Of a DNA stretch of 64,000 bases, positions 1 to 18,575 are shown in pieces. The position numbers were made by a program, and so were the translations under genes. Within the stretch, counting starts at the first letter, position 1. Each line of letters starts with the position of its first letter. The notes beneath the pieces are model-generated. The model saw only the letters and a list, made by a program, of their open reading frames with translations, was not told the DNA's origin and searched no databases. The DNA is from a virus (Duplodnaviria; Caudoviricetes), in the IMG/VR virus record IMGVR_UViG_3300035661_000004; one strand, written 5' to 3'.

Positions 1-120
1 GTCCAGGACCTTGCTCTCGGGCATGGACCTATTGACGCAGCCATTGTCGTAGGCGATCTCGAGAAATGCAAATTGGAGGCTCATGCCGTCTCCTTAAGTA
101 TCACTGTTGTCGATAAGATG

Positions 121-150
121 ATTGTACACCCATTCGGACCGTGATGTAAA
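121..150 (-). promoter_or_regulatory. sigma70-like early/middle promoter (TTTACA-N18-TACAAT)
   Basis: Same motif recurs upstream of many minus-strand gene blocks. Confidence 0.7.
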
Positions 151-156
151 CGGCTT

Positions 157-432
157 TCAGCTCTTTGGAGCTACGTTCCGCTTGCCGGTGAAGCCTTCAG
201 CCGCGGCGCGTGCCGCACGGTCCAAGGAGTTCTGGTAGTCCTGACCGGTGGCTTGCCGCAGCTCGGTCAAGCGGTCGCCAAGCTCCTTGGCCTCCTTGAC
301 CTCGACATCGGTCAAGCGGCCACCCAGGGCCTTGAGGACCAGCAGCGCGTCCTTCTTGCTCAAGGTGAAGGACCAGCGCGGGATGTAGGACACCTCGGGT
401 GCTGGGTTGATCTCGTCAAAGTCTTGGCTCAT
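157..432 (-). CDS. hypothetical protein
   Basis: ORF with GGAG-type RBS, tightly packed with neighbours. Confidence 0.7.
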   Translation of the reverse strand: MSQDFDEINPAPEVSYIPRWSFTLSKKDALLVLKALGGRLTDVEVKEAKELGDRLTELRQATGQDYQNSLDRAARAAAEGFTGKRNVAPKS

Positions 433-644
433 GGTGTTGCTCCTTTAGCAAGCAAAGCGATCAAAAAGCTCAGCAGGGCGACGCAGCCCAAGAGCAGGGC
501 GATGCCTGCATGGCGCCCGTTCAGGCGCTTGAGAGCCGTGTTGAGTCGGTCATACACAGGTCCGTCGAGAGCATCGAAGGTGATCAGGCCCATGGCAAGG
601 AGGGAGAAGGCGGTGATAGCGCCGCAGGCTTGGTAGATCATCAT
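429..644 (-). CDS. small two-TM membrane protein
   Basis: AAGGAG RBS before ATG at 644; two hydrophobic segments. Confidence 0.65.
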   Translation of the reverse strand: MMIYQACGAITAFSLLAMGLITFDALDGPVYDRLNTALKRLNGRHAGIALLLGCVALLSFLIALLAKGATP

Positions 645-882
645 GAGCTCCTTGTTTGGGTGAGCGTGAGCGCGGGAGTGCTCTGAATGTCCAGCTCCTC
701 CCGCACGGTGTTGCCGCTGTAGGTGACATGACACGGCCGAGTTGGACCTGGAAGCCGACACGTTTGAAGGAGCCAGCTAAAGCCTCGGCCTCCTCGCGCT
801 GGTCCATGGAGTATTCCAGCTTGAGCTGAACCAGGTCTACGAGAGCGTGAACAACGTACGTGATGCGGTGGGTGTTGTTCAT
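641..882 (-). CDS. hypothetical protein, apparent 1-nt frameshift near 735
   Basis: MNNTHRITY... frame; after a shift it reads HVTYSGNTVREELDIQ... and stops in an ATGA overlap with the next gene. Confidence 0.45.
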
Positions 883-1501
883 TTTGCCCTCTTCAGAGCC
901 TTGGCAAGCTCATCAGCGTAGATCGGCTTGGTGACGCCTTTCAGGCGAGCGCGCTCGACTACCCGGCTGGCCGCTTGGTGAGGCGTGAGCCAGTTACGAC
1001 CGTCGAACACGTGGTCGCCCGCCGGCTTGTTGCCAAGCTTGCGAGCCTCGGCCAGCTGCCGGCGGGCGGTCGGGTCCCGCCGCACCTCGGCTTCGGTCTT
1101 GCCTGACTTTGCCGCAGCTGCGTCATGAGCTTGCGCTCATGCTTGTTCATGACATGCTTGGTCGGAGCCGCATTGGCCTTACGCTCGCTCACGAAAGACT
1201 TTAGCTCCAAAGTCGGAGCGCGCATGACCCTGAAGCTCCAGTCTAGCGCCCTGAGCTCAGCAGCCGCTGTGGGAACAGGATCGTACCCGACTGGATACAT
1301 GCGGCTTTGGTCACCGCACTCGATGCTAAGGAAGCCTGTCTTGTAGGCCTCCCAGGTCATCGTCAAGGTGTCGCCGGCGTTGACCACTGTGACCTTGACT
1401 GTCCGCGCTTTGACTCGTTTGAAGGTCAGCTCATGGCCATCATCGATGCAGGCTTGCTGCATGATGAGGAGAGCTCGTCGCATGTCAGACGAATTGCTCA
1501 T
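879..1501 (-). CDS. hypothetical protein, apparent 1-nt frameshift near 1110
   Basis: ORF 959..1501 joins ORF 879..1085 (QL-AAKSGKTEAEVRRDP) if one G is added. Confidence 0.45.
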
Positions 1502-1732
1502 GCTACTTCCTGCGCCGACGAGCGCGCTTGCGCTTCGGCTTAGGGACCAGATCTGAGAGCGTTGCTTGTCGCTCGATGTAGTACTGCCGGCGAGCCAGCC
1601 GCAGCTCTTCAGTGACTTGGCCGATCATGCGCGAAGCACAGTCACGGGAGCAAGCTTTTTGGAACTCGCGCGCCGGCGTGAAGGTGTGGCCGCAGCCGCC
1701 CCGGTTAGAGGCACAGCAGATGGATGAGTAGG

Positions 1733-2077
1733 TCATACCAGCTCCGCAAAGCCAAACGGCTTGCACTCGTAGGCGCGGCCGTTGACCTCGATCACGTCAC
1801 CGACGGACATCGAGGTGTGGTTCAGCTCCTTGCTCGTGATTAGCTCGCGGGCTTCGCCGTTCGGGGACCAGCATTCACCTTGGAGAGAGCCGAAGATAGC
1901 TTCGAGGTGGGTTTCGGCGATGGAGCCCAACAGCACGTGCGTTGCCTCCAGGTTCTTCGGGTCAACCTTGACCTCGCCGAAGGTGATGTAGCGGGCGACC
2001 GCGGGCTTGTAGTACCAGACCTTCGTGGCGCCTGCATGCAGGGCGCAAAGGTTGGAATCATTGAGCGATTTGAGCAT
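1733..2077 (-). CDS. hypothetical protein
   Basis: GGAG RBS and ATG at 2077, downstream of promoter 2114..2142. Confidence 0.7.
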   Translation of the reverse strand: MLKSLNDSNLCALHAGATKVWYYKPAVARYITFGEVKVDPKNLEATHVLLGSIAETHLEAIFGSLQGECWSPNGEARELITSKELNHTSMSVGDVIEVNGRAYECKPFGFAELV

Positions 2078-2113
2078 CTTGCATCTCCAAGTATCACTGT
2101 TGCCGATATGATG

Positions 2114-2142
2114 ATTGTACACCAGTACGGCCTCCGTGTAAA
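2114..2142 (-). promoter_or_regulatory. early/middle promoter TTTACA-N17-TACAAT
   Basis: Consensus match. Confidence 0.75.
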
Positions 2143-2161
2143 CACTCGAGAGACAAAAAGA

Positions 2162-2257
2162 TGGCGGAAGGCTGAGTACTCGAAACCCATCCCGCTTGTT
2201 GAGAGCGAGACCCTCGGATTAGCAATCCGGTCCAGGCACCTACCTGGTTAACCTTCC
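2162..2257 (-). tRNA. tRNA-Ser(GCT)
   Basis: Cloverleaf, loop TT-GCT-AA, long variable arm, encoded CCA. Confidence 0.9.
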
Positions 2258-2274
2258 ATGAATTCGCGCTTTAC

Positions 2275-2673
2275 TCAGTCGTGATGATCTTCGAGCGGGT
2301 CGTCGTAGAGCCGTACATGTAAGCGTGCGTCAGGCCGTTTGTACAGCACCTCCTCGGACACAGCGCAACCTGTAGCCTCCTTCAGGTGGTTGAGCGTGTC
2401 GGGAGCGTCACGCAGCGTGATAAGCAAGCTTTGACCAGACGCGCGAAGCACCGTGCCGTACTCTGCATTGATTAGCCTTGCGGCGGTTTCGGGCGAGTAC
2501 TTTGCGTCAAGCCCAACACGGACAATGTACCGCTTTTCCTTGCCAAGTGCTTCTGCAGCTGGCTCTTGTTCTTCAGCCTTCTTGCCAAAGATTCGGTCCC
2601 ACCCGCTACGGTAGGAGTCGGTAGTTGACTTGGACTTGAGGGCATCGCCGGTAATGTCGTTGTGTGCTATCAT
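2275..2673 (-). CDS. hypothetical protein between tRNAs (NDITGD...WDRIFGK motif)
   Basis: 132-aa ORF filling the inter-tRNA gap; N-terminal motif resembles small T4-like phage proteins (from memory). Confidence 0.6.
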   Translation of the reverse strand: MIAHNDITGDALKSKSTTDSYRSGWDRIFGKKAEEQEPAAEALGKEKRYIVRVGLDAKYSPETAARLINAEYGTVLRASGQSLLITLRDAPDTLNHLKEATGCAVSEEVLYKRPDARLHVRLYDDPLEDHHD

Positions 2674-2767
2674 GGCGGATAGTTGAGTACTCGAAACCCA
2701 ATCCCTCGTTACCGAAGAATCCCACTGCTTTCCAAGCAGGTCCGGTCACCTAACCGGTTAACTATCC
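2673..2767 (-). tRNA. tRNA-Ser(GGA)
   Basis: Cloverleaf, loop TT-GGA-AA, long variable arm, CCA. Confidence 0.9.
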
Positions 2768-2771
2768 ATGT

Positions 2772-2856
2772 GTCCCGTACCGGACTCGAACCGGTACGCC
2801 TCTTCCGAGGCGGCAGAGTTTAAGCCTGCTGCGTCTACCAATTTCGCCAACGGGGC
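2772..2856 (-). tRNA. tRNA-Leu(TAA)
   Basis: GCG-AAATTGGTAGA-CGC D arm, loop CT-TAA-AC, variable arm, GGTTCGAGTCC. Confidence 0.9.
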
Positions 2857-2947
2857 GGTGGAAGACGGAGGACTTGAACCCCAAGCCACATCTCTGTGAC
2901 TCCCACTGCTTTCGAAGCAGGTCCGGACCCTGTCCGGTTCATCTTCC
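2857..2947 (-). tRNA. tRNA-Ser(CGA)
   Basis: Cloverleaf, loop TT-CGA-AA, long variable arm; discriminator A rather than the usual G. Confidence 0.85.
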
Positions 2948-2950
2948 GTA

Positions 2951-3095
2951 AGGTGACAGTAGGACTCGAACCTACGATGCATAGTCTGTCATGCTAGCTT
3001 ATGCCATCGGTTCCTGCCATGGGCATGCGAGGGTGATAAGGCCTCTCCGTCTTGACTTGACCGCGACGCTGTCTACCAATTTTCAGCATGTCACC
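2951..3095 (-). ncRNA. 145-nt tRNA-like RNA with enlarged central domain
   Basis: Perfect 7-bp acceptor GGTGACA/TGTCACC, Leu-type D arm, perfect T arm; about 90 nt replace the anticodon and variable arms. Confidence 0.7.
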
Positions 3096-3096
3096 T

Positions 3097-3179
3097 TGGT
3101 GCCCTCGGCGGGACTCGAACCCGCAAAAATCTAGCATCTCAAGCTAGTAGCTGTACCAATTTGCATTTATCACGAGGGC
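3097..3179 (-). tRNA. tRNA-Leu(GAG), short variable loop, enlarged D region
   Basis: CTAGC-TTGAGAT-GCTAG anticodon arm, T arm, ACCA end. Confidence 0.8.
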
Positions 3180-3227
3180 GTGATGTGTTTGCATTATATT
3201 ACCTTTTCGGCCAAGGTGATATAAAGC

Positions 3228-3320
3228 GGCGGATGACAGAGGACTCGAACCCCAGCCCGGGTACTAGCCGAACCGTACCGCTTTCAAGGCGGCCCCGGAC
3301 GCCCGCCCGGTTTATCATCC
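3228..3320 (-). tRNA. tRNA-Ser(TGA)
   Basis: Cloverleaf, loop CT-TGA-AA, long variable arm. Confidence 0.9.
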
Positions 3321-3875
3321 GATGATGAGGTGCTGCAGCTTAGCTACAGCTTCGTTCCAAGAGGCCCCAATGACGCTGTCAGGAACCCTTACGCTAATGC
3401 ACCACCGAGGCTCAGCCTCCACGTCAATGGAGTGCGGAACGTCCGTGCGCACGAGCGTAAGCTCTTGCTTGACCTCATGGCTGTCAATAAGCGTGAGCTC
3501 CGTCTTAGGCCATGAGAGGTAGTCTGTCTCGACCATGGTCAGGCTTGCGGCACCTGCTTTGCCCTCATGCCCTGTGTACCACAGCATCTTGCTCCCCTTG
3601 CCGCCTAGGACCCAGTTAAAAGCAAATGCTTTCGGCCTAGTCGGCGTGCTCATGTCGATGTGCGCGATGGGGCTTCGAGCCCAAGGCTGCTTGTAGAACA
3701 AGATAGCCTGGCAGACCGGCAGGCCGATCAAGGTCATCCAGCGTAACCAATCATCGGTGAAGATGTCGGTCAGCGTAGGGTCATAGATAGCCCAGGGCTT
3801 GGGGTCAGCGGGGAGCGTCCAACCAGGTCTTAGGGCGCCCGCTGTCGGGATAGTCAGTTCATGCCAGCACTTCAT
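3315..3875 (-). CDS. putative 2OG-Fe(II) oxygenase/cupin-like protein
   Basis: HID...PH...R-x-x-x-S-x-R pattern; TAAATA at 3881..3886. Confidence 0.5.
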   Translation of the reverse strand: MKCWHELTIPTAGALRPGWTLPADPKPWAIYDPTLTDIFTDDWLRWMTLIGLPVCQAILFYKQPWARSPIAHIDMSTPTRPKAFAFNWVLGGKGSKMLWYTGHEGKAGAASLTMVETDYLSWPKTELTLIDSHEVKQELTLVRTDVPHSIDVEAEPRWCISVRVPDSVIGASWNEAVAKLQHLIIG

Positions 3876-3883
3876 GCTGGTAT

Positions 3884-4105
3884 TTAGTCGCCACCGTGCC
3901 TCGCGATCCGGACGATGTCCTGGCTGGTCACGATCCGGCACTTCGCTTCGATCTCAGCGATGCGGCGCTTGGGAATGTCGTAGTGGTCCTTGTGGAACCA
4001 GCAGCGAGCGATGTTGAGCTCCTGCGCCATCAGGTGCAGGTTCTCGATTGAGTAGGGCAAGCAGATGAGGTGCCTTGCCTTATCGGTCAGGTACTCGAGC
4101 TTCAC
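3884..4105 (-). CDS. DUF4031-like protein
   Basis: LHLMAQELNIARCWFH..HYD pattern. Confidence 0.45.
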   Translation of the reverse strand: MKLEYLTDKARHLICLPYSIENLHLMAQELNIARCWFHKDHYDIPKRRIAEIEAKCRIVTSQDIVRIARHGGD

Positions 4106-4392
4106 CGCTTGAAGTTTCGGATGGCGTCGGACAGCGGCCCGAGCTCTGCGATCTCTTGGTCCTTGCGGTGGAAGGTGCAGCTAGGTTGTGAGCGCTTCCG
4201 TCCCTTGACAACCGGGTACAGCACGACAACCGGCTGATCGCACCCTGTGCGGTGGCACTTGTAGGGTGTCAGTTCGGTGCTTGAGCCATGACCGATGCGA
4301 GCCTTGCTCTTGTGCGCAAAGATGCCGCAGCTTGGGCAGCGGTAGACGGCGCGGACGCCTTCGACCGGCTTGTAGTTGTGAACGCAGCTCAT
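4102..4392 (-). CDS. Cys/His-rich putative Zn-binding protein
   Basis: CPSC and C-x4-C motifs; coupled overlaps with neighbours. Confidence 0.6.
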   Translation of the reverse strand: MSCVHNYKPVEGVRAVYRCPSCGIFAHKSKARIGHGSSTELTPYKCHRTGCDQPVVVLYPVVKGRKRSQPSCTFHRKDQEIAELGPLSDAIRNFKR

Positions 4393-4646
4393 TGAATCAC
4401 CTTGTCGGCGCCGGCTTCCGTGATGGTCGTAATGTAACCCATGCGGGCGATGCGCTCAGCGGCTTCGATGTAACTGGTGTAGTGGTAAGCGCAACCAATG
4501 AGTGGGCTTGCAAAGCAGATGAAGCCTCGCGCAGCAGAGTCCTCGCAGCCTGGGTAGGTCAGCGGTTGGCCGCGATGAATTCCTGCGACCGCGTTGAACA
4601 CCTCGACGCCGTCTTTTGTGACTACAATTTGTGTCGGGAAGGTCAT
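4389..4646 (-). CDS. hypothetical protein
   Basis: First gene after promoter 4683..4711; GGAG RBS. Confidence 0.65.
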   Translation of the reverse strand: MTFPTQIVVTKDGVEVFNAVAGIHRGQPLTYPGCEDSAARGFICFASPLIGCAYHYTSYIEAAERIARMGYITTITEAGADKVIQ

Positions 4647-4682
4647 GCTGTGCTCCTAAGTATCGGTTGGCAGAATGGAATG

Positions 4683-4711
4683 ATTGTACATCATCACGAT
4701 CCGCTTGTAAA
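4683..4711 (-). promoter_or_regulatory. internal promoter TTTACA-N17-TACAAT inside the tRNA region
   Basis: Consensus match. Confidence 0.75.
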
Positions 4712-4715
4712 CACT

Positions 4716-4800
4716 TGGTGCGCCCGGTCGGACTCGAACCGACACGCCTTGCGGCAACAGATTTTGAGTCTGCCGCGTCTACCCATTCCGCCACGGGCGC
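4716..4800 (-). tRNA. tRNA-Leu(CAA)
   Basis: Canonical cloverleaf, loop CT-CAA-AA, ACCA. Confidence 0.95.
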
Positions 4801-4804
4801 GTGA

Positions 4805-5314
4805 CTAAGTACGTTTCTTAAAACCCCACGTTGGAGTTTGTGTGTGACAGTTGGGACAGATCATGCGTAAGTTTTCACGCCGATTGTCCTTGTTATCACC
4901 ATTAGCGTGATCAAGCTGAAACACTAAGGGCTTGCCATTCCAAGTTTGTCCAAGGCCGCATTCTTTACAAATGCCGCCTTGCTCTAACAACACGCGCTCA
5001 TGGAAGCAGCTCTTAGGAACTTCGTGCCATGGTGCATCTGTTAAGTGGTGCTGCCGTTTGTCTTTTGCAATACGTGCGGCCATTAAACCGCCCTTGATTC
5101 TATCTTCGCGCATCGGCCCTGCAGTAGGTCTTCCTGCTTGATAGCCAGCTCTCAATGTAGCACTGCTTCTAGCTCGATTTGCTAAGCATTGATTAGCGCT
5201 CTTGCAGCAAATGTACTTTCCACTTGCACTAATGAATAGGGCAGTTTGCCCACAGTCGTAAGCACACATGTGTGCCGTTGAAATTGGTGTAGCTGGTTTA
5301 GGTCCGCGTTTCAT
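4805..5314 (-). CDS. HNH homing endonuclease
   Basis: CxxC...LDHANGD..DN..ENL...CPNCH; AT-rich; TAAATA at 5321..5326. Confidence 0.85.
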   Translation of the reverse strand: MKRGPKPATPISTAHMCAYDCGQTALFISASGKYICCKSANQCLANRARSSATLRAGYQAGRPTAGPMREDRIKGGLMAARIAKDKRQHHLTDAPWHEVPKSCFHERVLLEQGGICKECGLGQTWNGKPLVFQLDHANGDNKDNRRENLRMICPNCHTQTPTWGFKKRT

Positions 5315-5326
5315 GCTGCCTATTTA

Positions 5327-5411
5327 GGTGCACACGGGGGAGACTTGAACTCCCAATCCCGAAGGCCACAGTGTCTGAGGCTGTGATGTATACCAATTCC
5401 ATCACGTGTGC
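5327..5411 (-). tRNA. tRNA-Leu(CAG), long variable arm
   Basis: Loop CT-CAG-AC, variable arm, T arm. Confidence 0.85.
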
Positions 5412-5414
5412 ATA

Positions 5415-5493
5415 TGGTGCCCTAGGCGGGACTCGAACCCGCAGAATTCCGCTTCTGAGGCGGACATGTTTACCAAGATTTCATCACCAGGGC
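5415..5493 (-). tRNA. tRNA-Leu(CAG), short variable loop
   Basis: TCCGC-CTCAGAA-GCGGA, 5-nt variable loop, ACCA. Confidence 0.85.
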
Positions 5494-5497
5494 GGTG

Positions 5498-5580
5498 GGT
5501 GGAGGTAGAAGGAATCGAACCTTCATGACCGAAGTACCGGGGTTACAGTCCGGGCGCTCTCCATAGGCGTCTATACCTCC
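5498..5580 (-). tRNA. tRNA-Tyr(GTA)
   Basis: Loop CT-GTA-AC, variable arm, T arm. Confidence 0.85.
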
Positions 5581-5592
5581 AAGGGTCTTACG

Positions 5593-5675
5593 GGTGGATC
5601 AGGATAGGAGTCGAACCTACGTAGCTTTCGCGGGAGCCCAAACTGGCTCCTGGGCTCGTCTCACCCAGCTGATCC
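5593..5675 (-). ncRNA. atypical tRNA-like RNA (8-nt anticodon loop)
   Basis: Acceptor GGATCAG/CTGATCC, D, variable and T arms present; GGAGC-CAGTTTGG-GCTCC anticodon arm lacks U33. Confidence 0.7.
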
Positions 5676-5683
5676 ATTACTTT

Positions 5684-5768
5684 TGGTGGGGCCGCAAGGA
5701 ATCGAACCTTGTTGGTCAGGGACACCGGGTTTACAGGCCGGGCAGAAGCCATTACTGTCTACGACCCC
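5684..5768 (-). tRNA. tRNA-Tyr(GTA), second divergent copy
   Basis: Loop CT-GTA-AA, variable arm, ACCA. Confidence 0.9.
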
Positions 5769-5810
5769 AAAAGTAAAGCGCGAATTGTTAAAGAGCGTCA
5801 CACCAATGAG

Positions 5811-5843
5811 AAAAAGCCTCGGACCTTTCGGTCGGAGGCTTTT
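5811..5843 (-). terminator. intrinsic terminator (attenuator) upstream of tRNA cluster
   Basis: AAAAGCCTC-C-GACC-GAAA-GGTC-C-GAGGCTTTT followed by TCTC. Confidence 0.85.
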
Positions 5844-5894
5844 GCTAGGTGTGAAGGTAGAAGTTCTGTCTTACCCGATCATGCAAAAGCCTCC
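5834..5894 (-). promoter_or_regulatory. antiterminator helix
   Basis: GGAGGCTTTTGC (5894..5883) is perfectly complementary to GCAAAAGCCTCC (5845..5834), which contains the terminator 5' strand. Confidence 0.85.
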
Positions 5895-5945
5895 ATCGCT
5901 ATAAAGCGATGAGGAGCTCAAATATGATAGGGAGGTGTTCTTCAT
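5871..5945 (-). CDS. attenuator leader peptide MKNTSLSYLSSSSLYSDGGFCMIG
   Basis: Codons 5-16 are TCC CTA TCA TAT TTG AGC TCC TCA TCG CTT TAT AGC (all Ser/Leu/Tyr); below the ORF-track size cutoff. Confidence 0.8.
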   Translation of the reverse strand: MKNTSLSYLSSSSLYSDGGFCMIG

Positions 5946-5954
5946 GATGGTAGA

Positions 5955-5983
5955 ATTGTATTTACAGTCGAAGTCGTTGTAAA
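5955..5983 (-). promoter_or_regulatory. promoter of leader/tRNA operon TTTACA-N17-TACAAT
   Basis: Consensus match; -10 ends 9 nt before the leader ATG. Confidence 0.8.
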
Positions 5984-6015
5984 CCGGCTAAAGTGTAACA
6001 ATCCTACTTGTACCG

Positions 6016-6207
6016 TTACTTGTTGTCCAACTTGGACTTAGCGAGAGCGGCCAGGCCGTTCGCTTCTTGAGCCCACTGCTCGAGCTTTGCTGGGTTACGC
6101 TTCAGCATCCAGCGGTAGAACCAGGCGCCGACTGCAGCGCCGACGAATGCGCCCACCAGGAACGGGTGGGTGAGGAAGTTAAGGATGAAGGTGAGGATGT
6201 CCCACAT
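6016..6207 (-). CDS. small membrane protein
   Basis: One TM helix; GGAG RBS; TAAATA at 6242..6247. Confidence 0.65.
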   Translation of the reverse strand: MWDILTFILNFLTHPFLVGAFVGAAVGAWFYRWMLKRNPAKLEQWAQEANGLAALAKSKLDNK

Positions 6208-6251
6208 GGCGGTCTCCGAACGGCGAGCTTGCCGTGCCTAGTATTTAGCTG

Positions 6252-6935
6252 TCAGAACCGCTTATATGGCTTTAGGTTGTGGCTTGGATCTTGCATGTCG
6301 TCAGGCGTCATTTGCTTGATCGCCTCCGCGGCCTCTTTTAGCGCTTCATGGAGGTCGGTTGCTTCGGCTTTTGCGGCGTCATCGCCGTTGACATCATAGA
6401 TCCAGACTCGGACCGTCGAATGGGTGGTGATGTTGATGTTGATGTGAGAGACGATGTACTGGTCATACACCTGGTGACCTGGCAGGTTGAACGGCGGGAA
6501 GATGTCCCAGTGCGCAACGTAGTCGTTGTCCTCACCGATGCCTTGCCGTTGGTCAATTGATGTCACACCTAAGGCTGACTTCAGCTGCTGCTCAAACACC
6601 TTGAACATGAAGTCTCGCTGCATGACCTTGAAGATTTTCGGAATGTCAAACTTCTCCCCCGAAAAGACGCTACCGCTCGCAGCCGCCACGACGACATACT
6701 CTTCGGGTAGAGTCGGTGACGGTAGCAGGTCAACCCAGCCTTTGACTAAGCCGTGTGTGTCTGTGTAGGAGAGCCGTACGCCAGCCTTACCGGCTTCCTT
6801 AGCCTTGCCGTACACCTCTGTGGGGGCGAGGGTGATGTGAAGGTCAAGCGGGTAGTCAGCCATCGCCTGCTGAAGCTTTAGCGCAGCGGTGCGGGGTGAC
6901 CTATCTCGGTTGGTGAACACATCTTCGACTAGCAT
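6252..6935 (-). CDS. hypothetical late protein
   Basis: 227 aa; TAAATA at 6965..6970 followed by a hairpin. Confidence 0.7.
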   Translation of the reverse strand: MLVEDVFTNRDRSPRTAALKLQQAMADYPLDLHITLAPTEVYGKAKEAGKAGVRLSYTDTHGLVKGWVDLLPSPTLPEEYVVVAAASGSVFSGEKFDIPKIFKVMQRDFMFKVFEQQLKSALGVTSIDQRQGIGEDNDYVAHWDIFPPFNLPGHQVYDQYIVSHININITTHSTVRVWIYDVNGDDAAKAEATDLHEALKEAAEAIKQMTPDDMQDPSHNLKPYKRF

Positions 6936-6983
6936 AGAATAAAGGGGGTGGCAAATGCCACCCTTATTTAGCCGAGCTTGAAC

Positions 6984-7613
6984 TCAGCTCGTGATGAACT
7001 TCGGAGCCAAGTCACGGTACACGCGGCTGCGGTCCTTGTTGGCGATCCGTCCCAACAAGAAGGCCATCTGATCAGCCTGGATGTTGCGGTTGCGCATGAT
7101 CATGGCTTCGGCCTTGCACGGGATGTACGGCAGGTAGAGCGGATCCATGGTCCGAGTGCCTTGCGGGCTGTACTGTCCATGCGGCAGCGGCTTGCCTGGC
7201 AGCAAGTCACCCTTCAGGTTGTTGCAGGCCTTGCAGGCCGTGACCACGTTCATCCACACGTCCGGGCCGCCCTTCGACACCGGCATGATGTGGTCACGAG
7301 TCAGGTCATGGCTCGTGAACAAGCCAGAGCAGTAGGCGCACATGTAGCGGTCACGCTGGAACAGTGAGGAGTTCGTCAGCGCAGACGGCTTAACCCGCTT
7401 GACCGTTGACTCGCCCTTGATGACGATGATCGAAGCCGTCATCAGCTCGGACTGGGACTTGGTCACGGAGTTGTCACCACCACGGTAGGTGATGAGGTCA
7501 TCGCCCAGGTGATCCAGGACTTGGCCCTTGGCTTCGCACATGATGGCCTCGTCACGGGTGATCCACTCGTGAGGGGTCCAAGACTTGTCGAGTACCAGAA
7601 CTTGATGCTGCAT
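6984..7613 (-). CDS. HNH endonuclease (McrA-like)
   Basis: RDRYMCAYC...LTRDHIMPVSKGG...NVVTACKACNNLKG. Confidence 0.85.
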   Translation of the reverse strand: MQHQVLVLDKSWTPHEWITRDEAIMCEAKGQVLDHLGDDLITYRGGDNSVTKSQSELMTASIIVIKGESTVKRVKPSALTNSSLFQRDRYMCAYCSGLFTSHDLTRDHIMPVSKGGPDVWMNVVTACKACNNLKGDLLPGKPLPHGQYSPQGTRTMDPLYLPYIPCKAEAMIMRNRNIQADQMAFLLGRIANKDRSRVYRDLAPKFITS

Positions 7614-7695
7614 GATGTTCTCCTCTAGTTTCCAGCAGGTGCGGCTAAACCTATCTTCCTACGTCCGCTTTGGCGCCTTGCAGGCGGTATTTATG

Positions 7696-7724
7696 ATTGT
7701 ACCCGGACCTCTACAGAATGTAAA
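7696..7724 (-). promoter_or_regulatory. early/middle promoter, with adjacent TAAATA
   Basis: TTTACA-N17-TACAAT-CATAAATA. Confidence 0.7.
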
Positions 7725-7735
7725 CCAAGCGCGCA

Positions 7736-7769
7736 AGAAAAAACCGCCCAGCTGTTAGGCCGGGCGGTG
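7736..7769 (-). terminator. intrinsic terminator
   Basis: ACCGCCC...GGGCGGT hairpin plus T run. Confidence 0.7.
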
Positions 7770-7800
7770 AAAGCGTCGTTGCATGACGCCGGAGGGAGGA

Positions 7801-8295
7801 TCAGTAGTAGCGGCGGCTGCGCGTACGGTCAACCCATGTAGGCAGCTCGGTACGGTCGGAGAAGTCCACGCGGAAGCACATCTTGCCGGACCAGGACTCC
7901 CAGAGCTTGGTCAAGAAGTCGGGCTCGTAGGGCTCGGGCTCCACGGCTTTCTTGGCCTTTCGCTTGGCCTTCTTCCACTCGCCATAGTGGTAGCTGCCGA
8001 AGACAAAGCCGACAACGAAGAGGGAGACCGCTGCCATGAGCGGCAGGACCAGGACGATTGCGAGCAAGTCGCCGGCGTCAGGCAAAGCTCTGAGTTTCAC
8101 AAGCGCTGCAACCCAAGCTATGTCATGACCTGCAAGGAAGGCGATGAGGCCGCCGTAGGCTGTAATGAGCAGAGCCTTGACCGTACCCCAGAACACCCAG
8201 TGTGAGTAGGTGCAGATGTCCACCTGCACCTCAGGGTGTAGGTTGGCGCTGTGGTAATAGAAGGCGAGACGCCCGTGCCAGCTGTTGGCTTTCAC
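7801..8295 (-). CDS. membrane protein
   Basis: Two to three hydrophobic segments. Confidence 0.65.
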   Translation of the reverse strand: MKANSWHGRLAFYYHSANLHPEVQVDICTYSHWVFWGTVKALLITAYGGLIAFLAGHDIAWVAALVKLRALPDAGDLLAIVLVLPLMAAVSLFVVGFVFGSYHYGEWKKAKRKAKKAVEPEPYEPDFLTKLWESWSGKMCFRVDFSDRTELPTWVDRTRSRRYY

Positions 8296-8306
8296 AGAGC
8301 GTCTCC

Positions 8307-9479
8307 TTAGGCGCGGCCGCGGCGCTTGGCCACGGCGCGGACCATTGCAGAGCGGACCGACTTGGTCTCGACCGACAGCTGTTTCAGGTCGCTCTTCGGC
8401 ACCGGCTTGCCAGTGATCGAGGAGATGTAGGTGCCGTCTTGCTCGAAGGCGATCGTGTACTTCTCAGCCGGCAGCGGCCCCTTGGAGTCCTGGAAGCGGA
8501 CCCAGGCCTTGCCGTTCTTTGCCAGGCCGTAGCCTTCGGCCAGGACCTTCAGCGAAGGCTTCAGGTTGCCGATGGAGACGGTCTCCTTCGGCTGCGCCAC
8601 GTTCTTGCGGGCCTTCTGCTTGGCGCCTTCCGGACCTTGCTCCACGAACTTGACTTGCGGTGCGGCGTCCTTCATGTTCTCGTCGAAGATGAAGGGCTGC
8701 AGGAACAGCTCGTCCTTGGCCGCATCGCCCAGAGCTTCGCCGACGACGAAGTACTCGGAGGCACGACCCTTGGTGTTCTGGTAGTCCGTCGGGATGGCGA
8801 ACACGAAGCGCGGGTTGACCTTGACGATGACGGTGCGTGAGCTGACATCGCTGCGGTACTGGCTCAGGTAGGAGCGCGAGCAGAAGTGCAGGCCCACGGA
8901 GCAGGTCTGGTGACGGTTGACGTCGACCTTGTCCGGGTCCATGGCGACCAGCTTGCCGGGGCTGTTGTCCAGCGTGCCGGTGTAGATGTCCTTGAAGTTT
9001 CGCGCGACCTTCTTGTAGGCCAGGAAGCAACCGTCCTTCGTGATGGGCATCTTGCCGCTCATCAGGAACTGGTACAGCTCCTCGCGGAGGTCCTTCTTCT
9101 TGTTACGGCTGATGTTCTGCAGCAGCAGGACCAGCGGCTGAATGGACTCGGCCGTGCTGCCGTTGCGGACAGAGGCGATGATGCGGTCCACGAGTGGACC
9201 GGCGATCTTCTCGGGGCCCTTCGGGCCTTCCCAGTAGAGCTCACCATCAACGAAGCGCACGCGAGCGTTAGCGTTGGTGATCGCTTCGGCGACCGTACGC
9301 TTGACATTGGCGAGAGCCAGGACTCGGTCGTACTTGCCGGCGCGCAGCTCCTGCTCGATCAGGTCGAAGTTCGGGTTGGTCGTGTCAACGACCGCCGGCA
9401 CTCCGTTGACGATCAGGGTCAGACCGACTGCGTTCTTGGTCCAGAAGACCTGCGGCGCGCTCTTTGCATCGATTGCCAT
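8307..9479 (-). CDS. rIIB: rIIB-like protein
   Basis: PITKDGCFLAYKKV...DIYTGTLDNSPG...CSVGLHFCS motif; downstream of rIIA. Confidence 0.85.
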   Translation of the reverse strand: MAIDAKSAPQVFWTKNAVGLTLIVNGVPAVVDTTNPNFDLIEQELRAGKYDRVLALANVKRTVAEAITNANARVRFVDGELYWEGPKGPEKIAGPLVDRIIASVRNGSTAESIQPLVLLLQNISRNKKKDLREELYQFLMSGKMPITKDGCFLAYKKVARNFKDIYTGTLDNSPGKLVAMDPDKVDVNRHQTCSVGLHFCSRSYLSQYRSDVSSRTVIVKVNPRFVFAIPTDYQNTKGRASEYFVVGEALGDAAKDELFLQPFIFDENMKDAAPQVKFVEQGPEGAKQKARKNVAQPKETVSIGNLKPSLKVLAEGYGLAKNGKAWVRFQDSKGPLPAEKYTIAFEQDGTYISSITGKPVPKSDLKQLSVETKSVRSAMVRAVAKRRGRA

Positions 9480-13375: not shown

Positions 13376-14953
13376 TCAGAATGTAAACACGCCCCAGCCG
13401 ATATCGATGCTGTTCTCAACCCTTGCGCCGTTGAGGGCCATGATGACATGCGGCACGCTGGTTTCACCGTCGCCGTCATCGATGTACATCGTCAGCTTGA
13501 CCGTGCCGCCCCAAAGGTAGGAGGCATGCGCGATCACGTCATTGGCTTGCTCTTCGTTGAGGGGGCGGTTGTTGACAACGAAGTGCTTCAACCTTAGCAC
13601 GTCATCGTCGTTTCCGATGACCTGGATGTCAGGCTTGTAGCGCGAGATGTGGTACTGTGCGGCCAGCTTAGCGCGCAGTTCACGGAAGGACTCAGGACGA
13701 GCCACCTCGGTGATTAGGTACTCTTCGTCATAGAGTCCGTGGTCACGGATCGCAAACATCTCGAGCTTCTTCGCTACCGACGGCGCCAAGAACTGCAGGA
13801 TGAAGGTCTCATCGGTATAGTTCATCATGGCTTCTTGCAAGACATCCTGCCACGGTTGCCCCTTCAAGTGGCCGTGGTACGGCTCGTCATCGGGGTCCTT
13901 GCAGCCATCCTCGCAGGCAGCCTTGAGGGACATGAAGATCTCAAAGCCGAGCTTGTACGGGTTGAAGGCGGCTTGCGCACGCTGCGCGATGACGCCCGAG
14001 TGCATTCGGAAGAACTCATGCATCGAACCTTCGTCGATTAGGCCCTTGTCATACAGCCTGTTGAGGATGTAGTAGTGAGTGAAGGTAGCGTAGCCCTCAT
14101 TCAGCACCTTGGTCTTGCGTTGTGGGTCAAAGTACTGAGCGATCATCCGGTTGATGCGGATGAGCTCCTTCTTCCACGCTGGGATCTTGCCGTGCTTCTC
14201 GATGAAGTAGAGGAGGTTCTCTTGCGGCTCTGCGAGCAAGCCTTCTTCGTCATCCTCGGCAGGCGGTGCTTGGTCAGCCTTTGCCTTGTCGACCAAGCCT
14301 TTGCCGACCTTCTGCCACACAGCGTCATAGTCATACAGCTGCTGAGCAAAGCGCTCGATGGCCTTCTTCTCCTCTTGCTCAGAGTTCAGAGCGCGGTTCC
14401 GCTTAGCGCTGTCTGTGCCGTACAGGCTCAGTGCATGGCACGCGTCAAGCACCGCTTCGACTTCGTCAACGCCGTAGCGCTCTTCGCACATCAAGATGTA
14501 ACGGCGAGCGAAGCTCAGGTAGCTGACGATGCCCGCCGCGTCCGTGTAGTTCTTGAACATGAAGTTGTTCTTGAAGACAGCGGAGTGGCCGATCGATGCG
14601 TGCGCGATGACCAACAGTTGGACCAACGCGTTGTTCTCCTCCATCAGGTAGGCGATGCAGGGATTCGAGTTGATGACGATCTCGTACGCCAGGCCCATGA
14701 GGCCCTTCTTGTAGTCTGCCTCCGACTTGACCAGCTCCTTGCCGTATGACCAGTGCGAGTACCAGACCGGCAAGCCGCTTGAGGTATAAGCTTCGAGCAT
14801 CTGTGCGGCCGAGACCACTTCAATCTGAGGCTCGTAGTAGGTCTGGCGCATGTCCTCTTGCGCGATGACCTTGCACTCCTCCCAGCAGCGTCGGAGGAGC
14901 TCTTCATTCCAGTCGGCGCCCGACGTGAACAGGAGCTTGCTATCTTCAGACAT
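13376..14953 (-). CDS. ycgB: SpoVR/YcgB family protein
   Basis: GLPVWYSHWSYGK...GLAYEIVINSNPCIAYLM...HASIGHSAVFKNN...KVLNEGYATFTH. Confidence 0.9.
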   Translation of the reverse strand: MSEDSKLLFTSGADWNEELLRRCWEECKVIAQEDMRQTYYEPQIEVVSAAQMLEAYTSSGLPVWYSHWSYGKELVKSEADYKKGLMGLAYEIVINSNPCIAYLMEENNALVQLLVIAHASIGHSAVFKNNFMFKNYTDAAGIVSYLSFARRYILMCEERYGVDEVEAVLDACHALSLYGTDSAKRNRALNSEQEEKKAIERFAQQLYDYDAVWQKVGKGLVDKAKADQAPPAEDDEEGLLAEPQENLLYFIEKHGKIPAWKKELIRINRMIAQYFDPQRKTKVLNEGYATFTHYYILNRLYDKGLIDEGSMHEFFRMHSGVIAQRAQAAFNPYKLGFEIFMSLKAACEDGCKDPDDEPYHGHLKGQPWQDVLQEAMMNYTDETFILQFLAPSVAKKLEMFAIRDHGLYDEEYLITEVARPESFRELRAKLAAQYHISRYKPDIQVIGNDDDVLRLKHFVVNNRPLNEEQANDVIAHASYLWGGTVKLTMYIDDGDGETSVPHVIMALNGARVENSIDIGWGVFTF

Positions 14954-15356
14954 TGGGACCCTCCTTGGGGCAGGCGAGATTGAGCTGAGCTTCGCTGATA
15001 GAGCCAGGCTCCATCACGATCTTGGTGTTCATCGTGGACTCTTGCACCGCATTTGAGTCGGCGTCATAAGCCACGAGGAACTTGATGGTAGAGGTGCGGG
15101 CCTTGCAGTCATGCTCAGTCCGCGAGACGTAGCTGGTCTTGTCGTCAAGGTTCTCGAGCAACGTGAACGTAATGGGAACCTTACCGCCTCGAGCTACCGT
15201 GACGTGAGCCAAGAGGTTGTCCTTGCGAAGCTCGACGATGCCATTGCGAACGGTAGCTTGCGGAGCTGCAACGATCGGATGACTTTCAACATTGATGCTG
15301 GCCTCGCAGCCAACAAGGAGCGCTAGGCACCAAAGCCATACTGCGCGACGACGCAT
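14946..15356 (-). CDS. putative lipoprotein
   Basis: Lipobox-like LLVG-C after a hydrophobic stretch. Confidence 0.6.
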   Translation of the reverse strand: MRRRAVWLWCLALLVGCEASINVESHPIVAAPQATVRNGIVELRKDNLLAHVTVARGGKVPITFTLLENLDDKTSYVSRTEHDCKARTSTIKFLVAYDADSNAVQESTMNTKIVMEPGSISEAQLNLACPKEGPNV

Positions 15357-15532
15357 TGAAGTACCTCTTGGGCGTTGATGATCTCGTAATCGGACTTCTT
15401 AATCTCGTTGAGGTATGAAGCGAGCGGCTGTTCAGCTCCGAGCATCTTGCCGTTCTCGTCCCTGGGAACACAAGTGACAAGGGAGCGACCGAAGATGTGC
15501 TTGACGGTCAATGCGGTGAGTTGGATTTTCAT
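15323..15532 (-). CDS. hypothetical protein
   Basis: ATGA-coupled to yeaH. Confidence 0.5.
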   Translation of the reverse strand: MKIQLTALTVKHIFGRSLVTCVPRDENGKMLGAEQPLASYLNEIKKSDYEIINAQEVLQCVVAQYGFGA

Positions 15533-16839
15533 GTCTTGGTGGTGGAGAAGAATGCGTGGAAAACGCCGAAGATGTCCCGCTCATGGTAGACTTGCTTGGA
15601 AGCGTGGTTGGGGTGCGCATCGCTGAGCGCCGAGTAGGTTGACCAGAGGCTATTGCGCGAGTAGTAGGACGGCGAGCTGTTCTGTGCTCCTTCCTGCTCT
15701 ACCTGCACGTAGGCGAAGTAGTTGACATACGGCAGGATGTCATCGATCAGCAGCTCGCTGCAAGTGCCGTTGTCGGTGCCTGTGTTGTCGCCGTCGGAGA
15801 CCTGCGCAACGTAGATGTTGGTCTTGCCTCTCAGGGACTCGATGCACTTAATTAGCAGGTCGAGCGCCGACGACACGATCGTGCCGCCGTTCTTGTGGGT
15901 GTTGAAGAACTCATCCTCGGGCAGCTCTTCGGCTTCAGTCGTGTGTGAGATGAAGCGCAGGTCGATCTGATCGTAGTTGCGGTCGAGGAAGAGGTACAGC
16001 AGGATGAAGAACTTGCGGGCGATGGTCTTCTCGCGTTCACCCATTGAGCCCGAGTTGTCCATCAGCATGAACATCGTAGCATGCGTCTTCGGCACCTTCT
16101 TCTCGATTCGAGTCCGAAAGCGGAGGTCAGATGAGTCAAAGAGCGGCAAGACGGTTTTACGGCGCAACAGCTCAGCGATCTGGTCACGTAGCTCGAACAC
16201 GCGCTTCGATGTCGGATGGTCAAGCGGTAGGTCGTTATCGACCATTTCAGCCGTGAGCCTGTTGAATTCCTCTTCGAGCTCCTTCAACTCAGCGCCGATC
16301 ATAGCGCCCGAGCTCAAGCGGCGGGCCTTCGAGTTCTTGTAGGAGCGGATCACCGACAGCCGGTTGGGCGAGCCTGCAACTTGGAAGCCTGCGTTCTCAT
16401 GCACGGTTTCCGTCTGCTTAGCCAGCAGGGTCTCGAGCATAAACGGCAGCTCGCAGTCCTCGAAGAGCATGTTGAGGAACTCGTCACGGGACAGCACTAT
16501 GCTAAACTCGTCCATGCCGTCAGGACCGTCACCTGCCCCACCGCTTTCGCCGCTCTCAGGCTTAGGCACTGTGTCGTACTCGACCCAGTCCTTGTTGCCT
16601 GGCAGGACCGTGTCTTTCATGCCGCCTTCACCGTAAGTGAACTGGGGCTCAGAGAGGTCACGCTTGGGAACGGTGACCTTGCCGCCGCCTCCCTTGATCG
16701 AGTCGAGCAGCTTGCGATCGCCTAGGATCTTCGGCAGCTGCTCTTTGATTGCACCCTTGTAGCGCCGCAGCAGCCTGCCGCGATTTTCAGAGGTTCGGTC
16801 GCGGTTTGCGGCCTTCCTGCGATCGATGATGATTGCCAT
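15529..16839 (-). CDS. yeaH: YeaH/UPF0229 (DUF444) vWA-like protein
   Basis: IIDRR...NRGRLLRRYK...EPQFTYG...MDNSGSMGEREK.IARKFF...GGTIVSSAL...SDGDN. Confidence 0.9.
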   Translation of the reverse strand: MAIIIDRRKAANRDRTSENRGRLLRRYKGAIKEQLPKILGDRKLLDSIKGGGGKVTVPKRDLSEPQFTYGEGGMKDTVLPGNKDWVEYDTVPKPESGESGGAGDGPDGMDEFSIVLSRDEFLNMLFEDCELPFMLETLLAKQTETVHENAGFQVAGSPNRLSVIRSYKNSKARRLSSGAMIGAELKELEEEFNRLTAEMVDNDLPLDHPTSKRVFELRDQIAELLRRKTVLPLFDSSDLRFRTRIEKKVPKTHATMFMLMDNSGSMGEREKTIARKFFILLYLFLDRNYDQIDLRFISHTTEAEELPEDEFFNTHKNGGTIVSSALDLLIKCIESLRGKTNIYVAQVSDGDNTGTDNGTCSELLIDDILPYVNYFAYVQVEQEGAQNSSPSYYSRNSLWSTYSALSDAHPNHASKQVYHERDIFGVFHAFFSTTKT

Positions 16840-16876
16840 GGTCTTCCTATTCCTCTGGTATGATTGTATCTATTGC

Positions 16877-17557
16877 TTAGACAATCAGTCCCCTTAACCC
16901 ACGGGGATCAAGCTCACCGTGGTAGTCAAAGTTGTCATTCAGCGCCTGCGTGAGGTGACCGTCTTGGAAGTAGCGCTGTACAAGAACCTGAATCGGTTGT
17001 GCGGCCTCGGCGTCAACCTTCAGCGCAGCGGCTTCAAAAATCTTGAGCAAGTGAAGGAACGCTGGGATGAAGATGCCTGAGCAAGTCAGCGAGCTGTTGC
17101 CAGCAACGTTGAGCGTGAAGTCCTCGCGATCGGCGATCTCAGCAAGCAGCCAAGCGACAGCGGCGTTGACCGTGTCTTGCTTGACCATTGTTCGCCACCC
17201 GTCACCACCTAGCACGAGCTTGTAGATCGGCTTCTGCGAGGTCTCTGCTGCGGCGATTGTTAGCCTTGTGCCGCTCGACTCCATGTCGTGCGCGATGATA
17301 AGCGTTGCGTCGCTCTCCTGCACGTTCTTGCGAGTGCGGTAGCTATAGCCACCGTGGCATTCGGTCAGGCCGAATGTCTTTGCCAGCGCAGGCTTGCCGC
17401 CGGCTGTGGTTTTAAAGCCAGTCGGGGCGAGGCCACCTGTGCGAAGGCCTACGCATTGTGCGGCTCGCAGGCCTGCGAGGTCAACCCCGGTTTGGCCGCC
17501 AGTTACGACGCGGAGATTGTGCTTCGTCGAGAGGGGGTTGTGCATGCGCGAGTCCAT
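16877..17557 (-). CDS. cpYpsA/SLOG (putative molybdenum-carrier-like) protein
   Basis: TGGQTGVDLAGL....GG.AP.G....Y..RT..NVQESDATL. Confidence 0.75.
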   Translation of the reverse strand: MDSRMHNPLSTKHNLRVVTGGQTGVDLAGLRAAQCVGLRTGGLAPTGFKTTAGGKPALAKTFGLTECHGGYSYRTRKNVQESDATLIIAHDMESSGTRLTIAAAETSQKPIYKLVLGGDGWRTMVKQDTVNAAVAWLLAEIADREDFTLNVAGNSSLTCSGIFIPAFLHLLKIFEAAALKVDAEAAQPIQVLVQRYFQDGHLTQALNDNFDYHGELDPRGLRGLIV

Positions 17558-17921: not shown

Positions 17922-18097
17922 TGAGCGATGCGAACTTGGGAGCCGGTGCCTTCGATGTTCAGCCTCAGCTGCTTGAGAGCGGCTTCGCATCGGTCCTTGG
18001 ACCCATGCTGTTGCTGAATCGTGGCCGTGGTCAGCTGACTGTTGGACGGACCTTGAACGGTAGACATGAAGGTGACGACAAAGATGAGGATGTACAT
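17906..18097 (-). CDS. small exported/membrane protein
   Basis: Hydrophobic N-terminus, GGAG RBS. Confidence 0.55.
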   Translation of the reverse strand: MYILIFVVTFMSTVQGPSNSQLTTATIQQQHGSKDRCEAALKQLRLNIEGTGSQVRIAQCTQM

Positions 18098-18571: not shown

Positions 18572-18575
18572 AGCT

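Follow-up and report, generated by a model that had tools for sequence, protein, structure and literature searches.

This work concerns the leader of a tRNA gene array on the minus strand of IMG/VR virus record IMGVR_UViG_3300035661_000004 (Duplodnaviria; Caudoviricetes), of which a stretch of 64,000 nucleotides (nt) is called the window here. The phage is uncultured and large, with a longest contig of 201 kb, and was found in sediment and microbial-mat metagenomes, from which this DNA may come. Between a phage promoter and the first tRNA gene, the leader contains a short open reading frame (ORF) with a run of Ser, Leu and Tyr codons, three alternative RNA helices and an intrinsic terminator, and it is discussed here as a putative transcription attenuator. 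Its features, in the order of transcription, are the following:

5988..6001, minus strand: conserved motif TTGTTACACTTTAG, directly 5' of the -35 box
5955..5983, minus strand: phage promoter TTTACA-N17-TACAAT, with -35 TTTACA at 5983..5978 and -10 TACAAT at 5960..5955
5871..5945, minus strand: leader ORF of 24 codons and a TAA, its ATG 9 nt past the -10 box
5898..5933, minus strand: control run, codons 5-16, all Ser, Leu or Tyr, mostly as rare synonymous codons
5874..5932, minus strand: 1:2 hairpin (anti-antiterminator) of 21 pairs, its 3' arm including region 2
5883..5894, minus strand: region 2, GGAGGCTTTTGC, 5' arm of the antiterminator, codons 18-21
5834..5845, minus strand: region 3, GCAAAAGCCTCC, 3' arm of the antiterminator and 5' arm of the terminator
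5811..5843, minus strand: intrinsic terminator, a 13-bp stem with one C-C mismatch, a GAAA loop and five U
5785..5796, minus strand: rrn-type boxA GCTCTTTAACAA, between the terminator and the first tRNA gene
5772..5786, minus strand: 5' half of a long-range helix, 15 nt, directly after boxA
2261..2275, minus strand: 3' half of the long-range helix, its exact complement, 3 nt before tRNA-Ser(GCU) and 3.5 kb downstream

Relatives were sought from the neighbouring 227-amino-acid (aa), 63-aa and rIIB proteins, and the syntenic contigs were compared. Contigs L002 and L003 are the window's own phage. Eight further leader variants were obtained (L001, L007, L005, L004, L014, L012, L016 and L015), with rIIB proteins ranging from 80% down to 48% identity to that of the window. 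The window and these eight make up the set of nine variants used throughout; L001 is also represented by L008 and L009, and the partial L006 matches L007 where the two overlap. In the seven complete further variants the leader is followed by Tyr/Leu/Ser tRNA genes, and the eighth ends inside the terminator at the contig edge. The distance from the leader to the Tyr or Leu tRNAs of an array made only of Ser, Leu and Tyr tRNAs is 40-70 nt in every complete variant. Contig L011, which has the same gene order, has no tRNAs there and no leader at the syntenic place. Among GenBank phages no close DNA relative was found, megablast and blastn giving only a 66-nt tRNA-like match, and tblastn with the 227-aa neighbour protein against the same phages gave nothing. 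In IMG/VR, neither of two exact leader patterns had a match and no relatives of two neighbour proteins turned up, and one scan of Joint Genome Institute (JGI) metagenomes with the 63-aa upstream protein found unrelated context only.

The TTTACA-N17-TACAAT promoter occurs in 11 exact copies in the 64-kb window, against 0.00 expected, all of them on the minus strand. In the leaders, a -10-like box is found at an equal distance in all nine variants and the TTTACA -35 box in all except L015. The TTGTTACACTTTAG motif recurs with small changes in the window, L001, L004, L005, L007 and L012, and could be an UP element or an operator. A first-pass annotation of this DNA had placed the promoter, the 24-codon ORF and the Ser/Leu/Tyr run at coordinates on the minus strand where all three were found, and its statement that the leader has no Shine-Dalgarno sequence agrees with the sequence. 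In all variants the start codon is 9-10 nt after the -10 box, inside a conserved ATCATG, which leaves no room for a Shine-Dalgarno sequence and makes the leader mRNA near-leaderless. An internal Shine-Dalgarno sequence of the form GGAGG-N7-ATG was considered and rejected, as that ATG is missing in L004, L014, L012 and L016.

The variant ORFs are 22-25 codons long, and the AUG, the stop codon and the reading frame are kept in all nine, with stops in the other two frames of the leader. In the six variants to which the length check was applied (window, L001, L007, L005, L004 and L009), the changes in length are whole codons or pairs of insertions and deletions that restore the frame. Starting so close to the promoter is not peculiar to the leader. 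Two ordinary genes of the phage (84 and 170 aa; promoters at 43963 and 33361, minus strand) have their ATG 7 nt past the -10 box and no Shine-Dalgarno sequence, so that their mRNAs are probably truly leaderless. With two genes starting 7 nt after the same type of promoter, leaderless initiation appears to be in use in this phage. Leaderless leader peptides have been documented in attenuators of Deinococcus deserti (PMC4007540), and leaderless polycysteine short ORFs in mycobacteria (10.1101/834739).

The 12-codon run of Ser, Leu and Tyr codons is the longest in the six frames of the 64 kb, the next longest being 8 codons. Only 0.001 runs of at least 12 codons would be expected, and none of 200 block shuffles got to 12. 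Runs containing only these three residues, 11-14 codons long, are present in all nine variants, and the order of residues has diverged within a constant alphabet:

Window and L001: SLSYLSSSSLYS
L007: SLSYLSSSLYS
L005: SLSLLSYSSLY
L004: SLSLLSYSSLYLS
L014: SLLSLSLSSLYYS
L012: LLSLSYSYSSLLSS
L016: LSLSSLYLSSLSS
L015: LSYSYSSLSLLSS

According to the first-pass annotation, homologues with the tRNA cluster but without the run would speak against its proposal of an attenuator; in none of the homologues with the cluster has the run been lost. How the codons change was examined in ungapped comparisons of 11 codons (33 nt) between the window and L004, L014 and L005, which differ from it at 9, 10 and 6 nucleotides, respectively. 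Over the three comparisons, 10 codon changes were synonymous, 7 stayed within the Ser/Leu/Tyr set and 0 led outside it; the within-set changes include Tyr to Leu and Ser to Tyr, which take two-base changes. When the same number of changes was placed at random, the codons stayed within the set in 0.02% (L004), 0.009% (L014) and 0.28% (L005) of trials. Because the lengths change in frame, the substitutions stay within the set and the other frames carry stops, we take these comparisons as strong evidence for reading of the leader frame and for selection on the tRNA families that its codons require. The choice of codons is also uneven. CTA, CTT and TTG, which are used in the leader, account for 5%, 9% and 13% of Leu codons in the phage, and TAT for 21% of Tyr codons; the common Leu codons CTG (44%) and CTC (28%) are avoided.

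Downstream of the leader, the RNA genes are arranged as follows:

5327..5768, minus strand: first tRNA block, without a promoter of its own, in the order Tyr-GUA, odd tRNA-like RNA, Tyr-GUA, Leu-CAG, Leu-CAG
5768..5684, minus strand: tRNA-Tyr-GUA, the first gene
5593-5675, minus strand: odd tRNA-like RNA, a cloverleaf with an abnormal anticodon loop (no U33)
from 5581, minus strand: tRNA-Tyr-GUA
5418-5493, minus strand: tRNA-Leu-CAG with a short variable region (class I-like body)
from 5412, minus strand: tRNA-Leu-CAG
2162..4800, minus strand: rest of the Ser/Leu tRNA array, with small ORFs interspersed
from 4800, minus strand: tRNA-Leu-CAA
4711..4683, minus strand: internal promoter
from 3320, minus strand: tRNA-Ser-UGA
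3097-3179, minus strand: tRNA-Leu-GAG with a short variable region (class I-like body)
2951-3095, minus strand: 145-nt tRNA-like RNA, with acceptor and T arms and a large structured insert
from 2947, minus strand: tRNA-Ser-CGA
from 2856, minus strand: tRNA-Leu-UAA
from 2767, minus strand: tRNA-Ser-GGA
from 2257, minus strand: tRNA-Ser-GCU, the last tRNA

In bacteria, a long variable arm is the mark of the tRNAs for Ser, Leu and Tyr. As the first-pass annotation had stated, every tRNA found in the window belongs to one of these three families, including the two copies each of Tyr-GUA and Leu-CAG, and no tRNA for another amino acid was found in the window or in the leader-bearing loci that were scanned (L001, L004, L012, L015 and L016). 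The claim that the codons of the leader match the anticodons of the array was correct in large part. Seven of the eight codon types used (UCC, UCA, UAU, UUG, AGC, UCG and CUU) have a cognate tRNA in the array, and the eighth, CUA, does not; it needs Leu-UAG, a tRNA seen only in the relatives L001, L004 and L015. The class I-like Leu-CAG and Leu-GAG sit beside normal long-arm Leu tRNAs. For the small ORFs inside the array, Pfam gave no function apart from DUF4031 and a weak, sub-threshold HNH match.

A promoter scan of the minus strand from 5811 to 4711 found no promoter-like site. Without a promoter in that interval, at least the first five RNA genes, the ORF with the weak HNH match and Leu-CAA need readthrough of the terminator to be transcribed. 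The internal promoter at 4683..4711 is a motif that the first-pass annotation had already noted.

Folding of alternative structures, a check suggested in the first-pass annotation, gave three mutually exclusive helices of the leader, 1:2, 2:3 and 3:4. The 12-nt exact complementarity between 5894..5883 and 5845..5834, and the terminator hairpin at 5843..5811, are as that annotation described them. Its 7-bp hairpin at 5911..5894 is present too; however, it is merely the tip of the longer 1:2 hairpin at 5932..5874, which had been missed. In the 1:2 hairpin the control codons are base-paired to region 2 and to the end of the ORF, and thereby sequester the 5' arm of the antiterminator. With this hairpin, the leader has all four regions of a trp-type attenuator.

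The 2:3 duplex has an energy of -23.7 kcal/mol, compared with -9.3 +/- 2.1 in dinucleotide-shuffled ORFs, none of 500 of which reached it. The terminator hairpin has -20.2 kcal/mol (RNAfold), is followed by five U and ends 42 nt before the first tRNA, and the whole leader folds at -53.4 kcal/mol (z = -5.4). The favoured structure changes as the RNA is extended: upstream RNA alone forms 1:2 (-27.4 kcal/mol), with region 3 added 2:3 is the minimum free energy (MFE) structure (-32.8), and with arm 4 the MFE structure is 1:2 plus 3:4, which is also that of the full leader in 8 of the 9 variants. No Rfam family reached its gathering score at the leader in a cmscan search of 1..9000, and the same search gave no Trp, His, Leu, Thr or Phe leader family and no T-box there at E <= 1, only weak, sub-threshold matches to unrelated RNAs.

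Conservation of these helices was determined over the nine variants. In each, codons 16-23 can form an antiterminator duplex of 11-14 bp with the 5' arm of the variant's own terminator, at -19 to -25 kcal/mol, compared with -9 to -14 kcal/mol in shuffles, of which 0-1 in 500 reached the observed value in each variant. In L012, L015 and L016 both antiterminator strands differ from those of the window, yet they match each other. One pair involving region 3 is C-G in the window, U-G in L007 and U-A in L001. The 1:2 hairpin has ten pairs changed on both sides (alignment A6), and the terminator is paired in 97% of cells. A covariance model trained on six variants recovered the three untrained ones (E = 3e-17, 7e-10 and 4e-9), finding exactly one leader at each locus and no leader where a locus had no tRNAs. 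The alignment made with this model was used because MAFFT misaligned the terminators of L015 and L016. On it, 88% of cells in the terminated fold are paired and 12 of its pairs have changed on both sides, which none of 500 shuffles reached, a count that leans towards that structure as the alignment was fitted to it. For the antiterminator, to which the alignment was not fitted, 90% of cells are paired and 3 pairs changed on both sides; between 7 and 39 of 500 shuffles reached the observed value, depending on the measure, and this column-based count is lowered by shifted registers in L012, L014 and L015. The alignment of homologous leaders that the first-pass annotation had called for shows both kept Ser/Leu/Tyr runs and changes on both sides of the helices.

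With the frame, the run of only Ser, Leu and Tyr codons and the three alternative helices kept in nine variants, the attenuator architecture of the first-pass annotation is supported. We put the probability at roughly 0.8 that the leader is a ribosome-mediated (leader-peptide) transcription attenuator of the trp/his/ilv type which controls tRNA genes. Transcription would start about 7 nt after the -10 box, placing the AUG at most about 3 nt from the 5' end, and a ribosome would translate the 24-codon ORF. If decoding is smooth, the ribosome would reach codon 15 or later, or the stop codon, and cover region 2, so that the 3:4 terminator would form and transcription would end at 5811. If no ribosome is present, 1:2 would hold region 2 and the terminator would again form. 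A ribosome stalled on the Ser, Leu or Tyr codons (A site at about codons 8-13) would break 1:2 and leave region 2 free to pair with region 3 over 12 bp, in which case no terminator would form and the polymerase would continue. It would next transcribe boxA, probably recruiting host Nus factors, and then the Tyr, Leu and Ser tRNA genes. As the output is the class of molecule whose shortage causes the stall, the element would be a negative-feedback controller of the supply of Ser, Leu and Tyr tRNAs.

The effect of ribosome position was modelled with a 29-nt mask around each A-site codon and equilibrium pair probabilities. For the window, the probability of the terminator is 0.89 with no ribosome, that of the antiterminator is 0.86-0.99 with the A site on codons 8-13, and that of the terminator is at least 0.99 with the A site on codon 15 through the stop. 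L001, L007, L004 and L014 switch like the window. Since this is an equilibrium model of a kinetic process, the result is only consistent with the mechanism and is not proof of it.

Several observations weigh against an attenuator. The transcription start, the translation of the ORF and the regulated readthrough are inferred, as are Nus recruitment and the biological trigger. The ATG of the leader is 9-10 nt after the -10 box, compared with 7 nt in the clear leaderless genes of the phage, which probably leaves a 5' untranslated region of 2-3 nt before the AUG. Initiation could be poor with such an extension and no Shine-Dalgarno sequence, which is still a weakness of the model. Some four codons in each run (UCG CUN ... 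AGC) build the stems of the small hairpin and are therefore constrained at the RNA level too. In the footprint model, switching at equilibrium is weak in L005 and L016, the L012 leader favours the antiterminator already when free of ribosomes, and 3 extra nt at the 3' end stabilise the terminator through CACACC/GGUGUG pairing. A simple terminator scan omitted the site at 5811, the stem of which has a C-C mismatch, and the U tracts are interrupted in L012 and L016. The promoter at 4711 could express the Ser-rich rest of the array alone. Finally, RNA-library contigs that bridge the terminator in relatives could derive from DNA. Small-share wastewater libraries contain contigs of relatives, among them metatranscriptome contig X6 (record 16), which covers tRNA-Tyr, boxA and the terminator. 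As another contig from these libraries extends 5' of the -35 box, DNA carry-over or upstream readthrough is possible and no conclusion on expression is drawn.

Some of these points would fit a switch that senses translation in general, similar to the coupling in pyrBI/pyrE, with terminator use altered whenever ribosomes slow down or are lost and the Ser/Leu/Tyr content being secondary. Free RNA favours 2:3 at equilibrium before arm 4 is made, the L012 leader is prone to the antiterminator with no ribosome at all, and a near-leaderless start may load ribosomes inefficiently. General sensing, however, leaves unexplained why nine diverged leaders have runs of 11-14 Ser/Leu/Tyr codons with substitutions within the set, why rare codons are chosen and why the downstream array consists only of Ser, Leu and Tyr tRNAs, and we regard it as improbable.

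The leader could also act as RNA only, its terminated transcript of about 135 nt being a small RNA or a riboswitch-like leader (for example, one that senses tRNA) and its ORF untranslated. Both the missing Shine-Dalgarno sequence and the strong conserved structure (z = -5.4) would suit such an element, and terminated attenuator RNAs are reported to be capable of acting in trans elsewhere (PMC6614838). Against this, the in-frame lengths of the inspected variants, the mostly synonymous changes, the kept AUG and stop and the stops in the other frames are signatures of a translated frame, and nothing in Rfam reached the gathering score, with no T-box or known leader family at E <= 1. An RNA-only element is therefore very improbable. 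That the ORF is a small protein gene with a constitutive terminator, the 24-residue peptide being its product and the tRNAs being made by leak or from other promoters, is hardly credible even with a conserved ORF between promoter and terminator and an internal promoter at 4711, since Tyr to Leu and Ser to Tyr changes and a reshuffled residue order would be unusual in a functional peptide, the residues at the C-terminus follow the nucleotides of the antiterminator, none of the first five tRNA genes has its own promoter and the significant 2:3 helix would be left without a role.

Beyond the putative attenuator, the conserved block before the first tRNA gene is GCTCTTTAACAA, which has its sole exact copy in the 64-kb window here and differs by no more than one change in any of the eight complete variants. 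Its sequence equals the boxA core of E. coli rrnB (PMC2176067, from a primer) and fits the boxA consensus GYTCTTTAANA, which was derived for gamma-proteobacteria (PMC5725501). Its presence points to antitermination of the tRNA array by Nus factors and to a host among the proteobacteria. The block was also considered as a promoter for the tRNA, a reading that was rejected, as the conserved sequence is boxA and the -35 spacing is lost in L015. The 15-nt complement around the array looks like an rrn-style long-range processing helix, and in L001 (about 11135 and 13572) both halves have changed in match, C to T with G to A. Polymerases that pass the attenuator would thus be Nus-loaded and would transcribe the array as an rrn-like, Rho-resistant unit with a processing helix. 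The position of boxA 3' of the terminator makes sense in such a scheme, because the terminator decision precedes the modification of the polymerase. On either side of the terminator are the sequences CACACC and GGUGUG (5848-5853 and 5799-5804, minus strand), with which its stem can become longer once it has been read through; the extended hairpin would stand directly 5' of boxA, which is the order of boxB and boxA in rrn leaders.

The leader resembles the enterobacterial attenuators, including the multivalent ones (ilvGMEDA for Ile/Leu/Val; thrL for Thr/Ile; trpL, hisL, leuL and pheL), in having a promoter-proximal short ORF with a run of codons for several amino acids, exclusive helices 1:2, 2:3 and 3:4, and an intrinsic terminator before the regulated genes. 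The leuL leader uses rare codons, as the phage leader does. In contrast to these systems, the phage element regulates tRNAs and not biosynthetic enzymes, and its three amino acids are grouped by the structural class of their tRNAs (long variable arm), not by a shared pathway. It is also near-leaderless, without a Shine-Dalgarno sequence, borne by a phage, followed by boxA after the terminator, and without sequence or Rfam similarity to them. In pheST (pheM) and the T-box systems, as proposed here, genes of the decoding apparatus respond to the amount of charged tRNA by a choice between terminator and antiterminator. However, pheST regulates a synthetase and senses one amino acid, whereas the T-box binds uncharged tRNA directly (specifier loop and T-box motif), and the leader has no T-box match. 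To our knowledge, neither is known to regulate tRNA genes.

The leaders of Deinococcus deserti (PMC4007540) and mycobacteria (10.1101/834739) are similar in that the ORF starts at or next to the 5' terminus of its mRNA and lacks a Shine-Dalgarno sequence, but they control synthetase, amino-acid or cysteine-metabolism genes in cellular genomes, whereas the phage ATG is probably 2-3 nt from the 5' end and its targets are phage tRNA genes. The rrn leader shares an exact boxA core 5' of stable-RNA genes and a long-range complement. In the phage, however, boxA is 3' of a regulated terminator, and the operon consists of tRNAs and small ORFs and not of rRNA. A further comparison is with phage tRNAs that rescue infection from defences directed at tRNAs, such as the T5 tRNA-Tyr (PMC11555353), as the present phage likewise has tRNAs, several Tyr copies among them, which could replace damaged host tRNAs. 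No regulation by a sensor of decoding is described for T5, and in the present phage the link with defence is a hypothesis. Full-text searches, with subscription journals outside the coverage, gave no description of leader-peptide attenuation of tRNA genes, which agrees with what the first-pass annotation had said of phage tRNA operons.

A cultured distant relative, Ralstonia phage RsoM2USA (MG752970.1), has PrkA and rIIB proteins that are 52% and 40% identical to those of the window. Of its 42 tRNA matches, 40 score above the Rfam cut-off, and GenBank annotates no tRNAs in the examined parts of MG752970.1. In a 25-codon ORF from 112124 (minus strand; L020), residues 3-23 are only S, H, W, Y, L, P, V, E and C, and these nine residue types are exactly the identities of its 16 downstream tRNAs; a hairpin and a T tract come next, with a possible 8-bp antiterminator. 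In a second ORF, from 87361 (minus strand; L021), 92% of the residues are among the amino acids served by the tRNAs of its block. The covariance model of the phage leader gave no match in RsoM2USA (E = 0.25), so these leaders are analogous and not homologous in sequence. It seems, then, that a phage in culture has codon-matched leaders of the same kind, and these could be studied during real infections.

Among the neighbouring genes, the window carries rIIB and, at 13376-20507 (minus strand), PrkA and SpoVR genes, and a DUF444 (YeaH-like) gene is just 5' of SpoVR in the twin contig L002. These genes have the same order in all the compared relatives that reach that far (L001, L002, L011, L012, L013, L015 and L016). 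The SpoVR gene of L013 (3767-6751) is about twice the usual length and has a match to an intein-splicing domain.

As extra tRNA would be of no help against amino-acid starvation, we think that the quantity sensed is the usable tRNA pool, which could shrink through damage or through demand. One version, which we hold to be doubtful, is that the leader is a damage sensor for class II (long-variable-arm) tRNAs: a host defence would inactivate Ser, Leu and Tyr tRNAs, the ribosome would stall and a complete replacement set would be made, with boxA and the long-range stem as an rrn-like machine for its expression and processing. Candidate defences are nucleotidyltransferases of the AbiEii/MenT3 type and, for tRNA-Tyr, a nuclease of the PtuAB kind. 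A 2026 preprint reports a probable preference of the abortive-infection toxin AbiEii for class II tRNAs, comparable to that of MenT3 for tRNA-Ser (10.64898/2026.01.19.700257), and the T5 tRNA-Tyr is reported to rescue infection from the retron Eco7/PtuAB effector (PMC11555353). Given these reports a counter-defence role may be called plausible at most, and a counter-defence purpose of the switch is something that we only infer. If true, the phage would have a counter-defence circuit that is inducible and limits itself, and that responds to the condition of the host decoding apparatus.

Leader-peptide attenuation is a textbook mechanism, and, as far as we found, all the genes for which it has been described so far serve to make or charge amino acids. 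In the phage the sensor, a ribosome on Ser, Leu and Tyr codons, and the output, Ser, Leu and Tyr tRNAs, would close a direct feedback loop on tRNA supply within a small, modular element. That the array is limited to the three long-variable-arm families points to a pressure specific to this class, for example from a defence that targets tRNAs. Judging from boxA and the long-range helix, phage tRNA arrays may make use of the host machinery that transcribes and processes rRNA. The finding bears on why large phages carry tRNA genes and when they are used, as the tRNAs would be made on demand.

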